Shown here in pieces: positions 20,376-21,376 of a stretch of DNA of 60,886 bases. Position 1 is the stretch's first letter; each line of letters opens with the position of its first letter. The stretch is from Escherichia coli (GTDB lineage Bacteria > Pseudomonadota > Gammaproteobacteria > Enterobacterales > Enterobacteriaceae): assembly GCF_003334385.1 (NCBI RefSeq), contig NZ_QOWN01000028.1. One strand, given 5' to 3'. The notes beneath the pieces are model-generated. The model was not told the origin of the DNA and did no database searches. It worked only from the letters and a program-made list of their open reading frames with translations. Both the position numbers and the translations under genes were made by a program.

Positions 20376-21376
20376 TCAGAGTTTAGCGAATTTTTCGAGG
20401 GTGCGAATAAGCTGTGTGACGAAGCCATATTCGTTATCGTACCAGGCGACCGTTTTCACCAGTTGTAAATCGCCCACGGCGGTAATTTCCGTTTGCGTGG
20501 CATCAAACACCGAACCGAAATGGCTGCCAATGATATCGGAAGAGACTATTTCTTCATCGGTATAACCAAATGACTCGTTATTGGTGGTTGCTTGTTTAAG
20601 TGCGTTATTCACCTCTTCGGCAGTCACTTTTTTCCGAGAATCGATACCAGTTCAGTGACCGAACCTGTTTTCACCGGCACGCGTTGCGCATGACCTTTCA
20701 GTTTGCCGCTCAGTTCCGGGATCACCAGACCAATGGCTTTTGCCGCCCCCGTAGTGTGGGGAATGATATTTTCTGCCGCTGCGCGTGAAGCACGTAAATC
20801 TTTACCACGCGGGCCATCCACCAGTGACTGGGTGCCAGTATAGGCATGAATGGTCGTCATCGTGCCGACTTCTATCCCGAAACTGTCATGCAAGGCTTTG
20901 GCCATCGGCGCAAGACAGTTAGTGGTGCATGACGCCACGGAAACAATGGTGTCGTTGCCATCCAGAGTGTCGTCATTGACGTTATAAACGATAGTTTTCA
21001 TTTCACCGGCAGGGGCGGAAATCAACACCTTCTTCGCACCAGCATCAAGATGCGCCTGCGATTTCTCGGCGGAGGTATAAAAGCCAGTACATTCGACAAT
21101 GATTTCTGCACCTTTCGCTTTCCACGGAATATTTTTAGCCTCTTTTTCGGCGTAAACCGCGATACTTTTCCCATCAACGATAAGTGAATCTTCCGTAAAA
21201 TCAACGCTCCAGGGGAATGGTCCGTAGTTTGAATCATGTTTCAGCAGGTAGGCGAGAATTTATGGGGAAGTGAGATCATTAATAGCGACAACGTCTATGT
21301 TGCTTTTGACTTCAAGTAATCGACCCAACACCAGTCGACCGATACGACCAAAACCGTTAATACCAACTTTACTCAT
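20376..21376 (-). pseudogene. gapC: Glyceraldehyde-3-phosphate dehydrogenase pseudogene (nonsense codon plus 1-bp frameshift)
   Basis: GAPDH-like translation from ATG (minus strand, 21376; AGGAGA site upstream) hits an in-frame TAA at 21260-21262 after 38 codons (..AINDLTSP*). The same frame then continues through the catalytic region (SCTTNCLAP) to a stop near 20624. The C-terminal third (ORF 20376..20627) is in another frame, with the shift at a T6/A6 homopolymer at 20628-20633. Confidence 0.85.

Follow-up and report, generated by a model that had tools for sequence, protein, structure and literature searches.

The window, a stretch of 60,886 nucleotides from an Escherichia coli contig (NZ_QOWN01000028.1 in assembly GCF_003334385.1), carries at positions 20376-21376 on the minus strand a pseudogene of gapC, the gene of a type I glyceraldehyde-3-phosphate dehydrogenase (GAPDH). 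It measures 1001 bp, compared to 1002 bp in intact alleles, and in RefSeq the identical sequence bears the note 'gap, frameshifted; internal stop'. The divergently oriented cybB lies on one side of the gene and the convergently oriented aldA on the other. On the minus strand, the ATG at 21376 opens a reading frame of 38 codons that ends in TAA at 21262-21260, its translation closing with LTSP. If this stop is ignored, the frame continues through the sequence encoding the SCTTNC motif and reaches GGA AAA AAG TGA, in which the run of six A residues occupies 20633-20628 and the TGA 20626-20624. The C-terminal 83 codons, encoding VTAEEV...KFAKL, are found in the -1 frame and end with TGA at 20378-20376.

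The conceptual translation retains the parts expected of the enzyme. The codon of the catalytic Cys150 (TGC, 20929-20927 on the minus strand) is placed inside the intact SCTTNC motif, His177 is likewise intact with TIHAYT present, and the GxGxxG NAD-binding motif is found at the N-terminus, where the adjoining conserved Arg18 is replaced by Gly. When the translation is repaired at three places (Gly18 to Arg, the stop at codon 39 to Lys, and one A restored to the run), it scores 447.3 bits against TIGR01534 (cutoff 367.2) and is 100% identical to PDB 7C5F over all 333 residues, and this match and identity together rule out a chance reading frame. The uninterrupted frame of about 333 residues is broken by the stop at codon 39 and by the -1 frameshift after codon 249, and the window gapC is thus a pseudogene of the type I GAPDH family rather than a functional member of it. 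No evidence contrary to this status was found. We consider it almost certain that it represents a unitary pseudogene of a K-12-related E. coli lineage, gapC being a chromosomal paralogue of gapA.

The sequences that surround the reading frame carry candidate expression signals. A Shine-Dalgarno-like AGGAG is found at 21383-21387 on the minus strand, 6 nt upstream of the ATG, and the 74 bp upstream of the ATG have no variable sites in an alignment with two intact alleles (CREC_5 and O157). Between the stop codons of the convergent aldA and gapC, a GC-rich hairpin can be read at 20346-20367 (GGCGGAGG-A6-CCTCCGCC), with a perfect 8-bp GC-rich stem and an A6/T6 loop. It is probably a bidirectional terminator shared by aldA and gapC, judging from its sequence and position. 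A scan with promoter and terminator consensus sequences gave nothing above chance, and even the hairpin at 20346-20367 was not flagged.

Three derived changes in a conserved gene

The nearest intact allele is that of strain CREC_5, encoding WP_000048667.1, a protein that is also encoded in an E. coli B derivative and in an O111:H8 strain. The coding sequence in the window differs from the CREC_5 allele at exactly three places, all of them directly visible in the alignment, and zero synonymous differences are found. First, A115T turns codon 39, AAA for Lys in intact alleles, into TAA (21260-21262, minus strand). Second, one A has been lost from a homopolymer (20628-20633, minus strand), leaving A6 where most intact alleles have A7 and shifting the frame by -1 after Lys249. 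Third, C52G (base 21325) replaces the Arg codon CGT with the Gly codon GGT at codon 18 (21323-21325, minus strand).

The comparison with intact E. coli alleles proposed in the earlier note was made with a sample of ten, ranging from 99.7% down to 95.9% identity and including alleles from an E. coli B derivative, O157:H7, O111:H8, APEC O2:K1, and river and wastewater isolates. C52 and A115 are present in 10/10, and codon 39 is AAA in all, which bears out the premature TAA at 21260-21262, after 38 codons and in place of an expected Lys. The 1-bp frameshift that had been placed at the A/T homopolymer 20628-20633 is equally real: the run is A7 in eight of the ten and AAAGAAA, of the same length and with a synonymous AAG, in the other two. 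Because the ten intact alleles share the opposite states, all three states in the window are derived. The possibility that the stop and the run length are ancestral was thus looked for, and the opposite was found. The two alleles with AAAGAAA are the divergent ones of AR_0017 and APEC E12053, in which codons 248-249 are read in the context GGA AAG AAA; this synonymous break of A7 should lower slippage at the site.

The rest of the frame had been described as intact. This holds for the catalytic SCTTNC and His177, but the derived change of Arg18 to Gly had escaped notice. Of 98 full-length GAPDH sequences representing diverse clusters, 83 have Arg at position 18, 11 have Lys, 3 have Gln and 1 has Gly. 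Arg18Gly alone is plausibly damaging, since the residue is Arg or Lys in 94/98 sequences. Position 39 is variable among the same 98, with Glu, Asp, Lys and Ala all common, and the catalytic Cys and His are each conserved in 97/98. Additional undetected lesions had been named as a possible sign of old decay; one more was indeed found, with zero synonymous differences from CREC_5.

The intact orthologue resides at the same locus. An intact gap adjoins aldA in 10/10 sampled strains of other lineages, and cybB flanks it in the two strains that were fetched with sufficient flanking sequence (CREC_5 and O157). Two observations concern the surroundings of intact genes: in O111:H8 TW05614, an intact gapC adjoins an aldA with the annotation 'frameshifted', and in the E. 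coli B derivative B95 delta A, an IS1 is located approximately 170 bp upstream of an intact gapC.

The ten intact alleles have a mean pN of 0.0042 against a mean pS of 0.109. This pN/pS ratio of 0.038 indicates strong purifying selection on intact gapC; 68 codons vary only synonymously and 9 with a change of amino acid. The repaired window translation is identical to intact GapC, also known as EcGAPDH1 (PDB 7C5F and related entries, WP_000048667.1), whose NAD-dependent GAPDH activity has been measured and requires Cys150 and His177 (PMC8615399). In most E. coli, gapC encodes an active NAD-dependent type I GAPDH. Compared to EcGAPDH1, the window allele has three disabling or potentially disabling changes and is unable to encode the protein.

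Distribution and separation of the lesions

The changes were followed through 5426 complete E. coli genomes, 5418 of which have the gapC locus, by probes designed so that any 28-base megablast word has to cover the diagnostic base. A 55-mer centred on the T of the TAA identified 1155/5426 genomes. The 55-mer for G52 also identified 1155/5426, and a joined probe gave the same 1155 as the TAA, revealing complete linkage of the two. A 48-mer that seeds only across the A6 run identified 1050 genomes, 1048 with the K-12-type local context and two with three nearby SNPs. These counts were obtained with short diagnostic probes that disagree mutually by about 4 genomes, and they show the stop to be commoner than the frameshift among E. 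coli genomes. The joined probe consisted of the G52 55-mer, the TAA 55-mer, filler and a 47-mer for A7, and the latter piece matched nothing, most likely due to the low-complexity filter of BLAST, which would mask A7 and not A6.

A5 runs and large deletions were considered as the source of the gap between 1155 and 1050. The gap is instead accounted for by a second haplotype: a three-piece probe found G52 and TAA joined to a different 3´ half in 108 genomes. This recombinant 3´ half is recognized by five synonymous marker SNPs (positions 567, 726, 732, 735 and 963), all in the state of the intact allele found in the B derivative and in O111:H8. By subtraction, the frameshift is absent from 106/108 of the recombinant genomes. 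Strains 2013C-4991, Combat13F7 and 25-07338 have G52 and TAA with A7, and in these the RefSeq note reads 'internal stop' only. C3728 has the recombinant haplotype with an A6 run that looks like an independent slip; the A6 probe matched two genomes in such a context. Since the stop occurs on a 3´ haplotype that is mostly without the frameshift, the frameshift is independent of the stop and its linked Gly18 and can be separated from them. The claim that gapC was struck by two independent and minimal lesions, each a single-base change, finds support here that goes beyond the sequence of the window. The aldA allele linked to the recombinant haplotype is WP_000115937.1 and not WP_000115943.1, from which it follows that the imported tract probably reaches into aldA.

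We infer the order of events from these haplotypes. On the branch to the K-12-related lineage, codon 39 would have changed from AAA to TAA and Arg18Gly would have been gained, and in a separate event one A would have been lost from A7 at codons 248-249 by slipped-strand mispairing. The dead allele would then have spread with its lineage and subsequently moved onto the second 3´ haplotype by intragenic recombination. Having the stop first and the frameshift later is parsimonious, and the alternative is that recombination could have swapped a 3´ half with A6 for one with A7.

The K-12-type 3´ half is found with A7 in only three genomes (ETEC1706, ETEC1717 and HS-01). These were considered as surviving evolutionary intermediates, and this was rejected upon comparison of ETEC1717 (A7) and ETEC1718 (A6), pig isolates from one study that are identical over 20,780 bp save for one base, at position 10744 of the extracted ETEC1717 locus, and thus differ only at the run. 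The A7 of ETEC1717 more likely reflects either a slip that took place very recently or a mistake in the assembly. This pair also bears on the suggestion that slippage could restore the frame. The length of the run does change, but function stays lost because the upstream TAA persists, and for each of the three A7 carriers the annotation remains that of a pseudogene with an internal stop.

Further decay within the dead-allele lineage is rare but visible. OkiPb01684 has the K-12-type pseudogene, from which one more base has been deleted close to the 3´ end (gene position 988). In SCPM-O-B-7615, which belongs to an unrelated lineage, an IS1A has replaced the 3´ two-thirds of gapC together with the 3´ end of aldA (locus 2575-4752). 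This is an independent loss of gapC.

Residual expression and a slippery heptamer

Translation from the native start would yield 38 residues and halt within the NAD-binding Rossmann fold, and from this truncation we infer that functional GAPDH is not to be expected from the window allele. The first in-frame restart is a GTG at 21028 (codon 117) that opens a 134-codon reading frame, the product of which would lack the whole GxGxxG NAD-binding segment. In K-12, the gapC locus is reported to be still transcribed and to be associated with sigma-S and with hunger responses (PMC4447067; PMC4512719). Induction of gapC has been reported in cold fresh water. Fragments of GapC might be made, considering this transcription and the reading frame that starts from the GTG at 21028.

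The loss of one A has a peculiar consequence for the reading of the message. It converts GGA AAA AAA GTG into GGA AAA AAG TGA and, as read from the sequence, creates an in-frame A_AAA_AAG heptamer (20633-20627) immediately followed by TGA (20626-20624), the entire element spanning 20624-20633 on the minus strand. A_AAA_AAG is a slippery motif of the dnaX type, X_XXY_YYZ (PMC9307594; PMC5389563). Similar to a dnaX-type site, the window has the heptamer in the zero frame, and a -1 slip would bring the ribosome into the frame encoding the remaining protein, where it would read GTG next and continue into the native ...GKKVTAEE.... The likeness ends there. No SD-like (GGAGG-like) element is found in the sequence upstream of the heptamer, no significant stimulatory structure was found downstream (z = -0.51 for an 81 nt fold across the site), and the heptamer is absent from all ten intact alleles. 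Of the features of a programmed -1 site, the window thus shows the zero-frame X_XXY_YYZ but neither stimulators nor conservation, and its heptamer was born from a deletion and lies beyond a nonsense codon. We regard it as a resemblance to a dnaX-type site only, a curiosity that may make the frameshift leaky.

There is a small chance that the frameshift lesion is intrinsically leaky and that gapC is silenced essentially by the single TAA, possibly together with Gly18. If so, one T to A reversion or an ochre suppressor would suffice for partial GapC activity, with no repair of the frameshift in the DNA. A rival proposal is that the allele is rescued by recoding, such that -1 frameshifting at A_AAA_AAG combined with readthrough of the TAA, or with re-initiation, yields low levels of full-length or nearly full-length GapC. 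The deletion did make an exact dnaX-type heptamer, in the zero frame and right before the stop, where a slip gives the authentic sequence; the promoter region and the Shine-Dalgarno-like sequence are unchanged; and the locus is reported to be still expressed (PMC2949598; PMC4512719). However, the heptamer lies beyond the TAA at codon 39, which has no evident readthrough signal, the first restart at GTG 21028 forfeits the GxGxxG segment, and Gly18 takes the place of a conserved Arg or Lys. Lacking an SD-like element or significant structure, the site is expected to undergo only basal slippage, and the heptamer is a by-product of the deletion in A7, absent from intact alleles, and not a conserved signal. 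Taken together, we find recoding rescue very improbable, and favor the reading of the window gapC as a plain pseudogene.

A natural polymorphism of E. coli

That gapC (b1416/b1417) is a pseudogene is already known. In K-12 it has been described as interrupted or truncated (PMC4512719; PMC2949598; PMC4447067), with b1417 listed as 'gapC_1, interrupted' (PMC4512719). The K-12 gene is found at the same cybB-aldA locus and has, according to the RefSeq notes, the same internal stop and frameshift. The gapC coding sequence of K-12 MG1655 scores equal to window-identical alleles and aligns with one gap to a test query that has A7. The best matches of the window over 25 kb (8001-33000) are not K-12 but wild isolates, namely SCU-104, N18-04097 and 160-11H1 of human, bovine and poultry origin, and K-12 differs from the window by one base in the flanks of gapC. 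The source of the window is a K-12-related strain, not K-12 itself.

An older account attributes the lesions to life in the laboratory. A passage in PMC2949598, citing Espinosa-Urgel & Kolter, describes gapC as truncated in laboratory strains, which are said to 'accumulate mutations in gapC', whereas environmental isolates have an intact gene. Sequencing artefacts can also be invoked, in that some assemblies are prone to errors in the length of homopolymers, and over 20.8 kb ETEC1717 is distinguished from ETEC1718 by the run alone. The distribution of the dead allele speaks against domestication and artefact alike. The stop is present in 1155/5426 complete genomes and occurs, in addition, on the second, recombinant haplotype of 108 genomes; with more than 1000 independent assemblies, an assembly error is very unlikely for either the stop or the deletion. 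Among 12 evenly sampled carriers, nine are wild isolates from humans, animals and food, including pigs, chickens, a migratory bird and a frog, and the window itself is closest to wild isolates over 25 kb. K-12 was isolated in 1922, later than NCTC86. The latter is the strain that Escherich described in 1885 (PMC5382810; PMC5399273) and it has both lesions, its gene being annotated as 'frameshifted; internal stop'. We therefore give practically no credence to K-12 domestication or sequencing artefacts as the origin of the lesions. With NCTC86 and many wild isolates among the carriers, the decay is natural and not of the laboratory, and the dead gapC allele is a lineage-specific polymorphism present in approximately 21% of complete E. 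coli genomes.

These observations also qualify the view, put forward in the earlier note, that the decay is recent. With zero synonymous differences between the dead allele and that of CREC_5, the decay is recent only relative to the diversity of the species: 21% of complete genomes have the dead allele, and NCTC86 had it in 1885.

In conclusion, the locus in itself is of little discovery value, being a textbook K-12 pseudogene, and both a crystal structure and activity assays of the intact enzyme already exist. What is added here is that Arg18Gly was acquired on the same branch, that more genomes carry the stop than the frameshift and recombination can separate the two, and that the dead allele is natural and widespread (1155/5426 complete genomes, including the Escherich strain of 1885). 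This is of use where gapC serves as a neutral integration site, where JW1413 (delta-gapC) is treated as a 'glycolysis mutant', and where gapC is cited as an example of domestication. The natural frequency of approximately 21% speaks against the older account of laboratory decay, and losing gapC may have been neutral, or even advantageous, in this gut-associated lineage.
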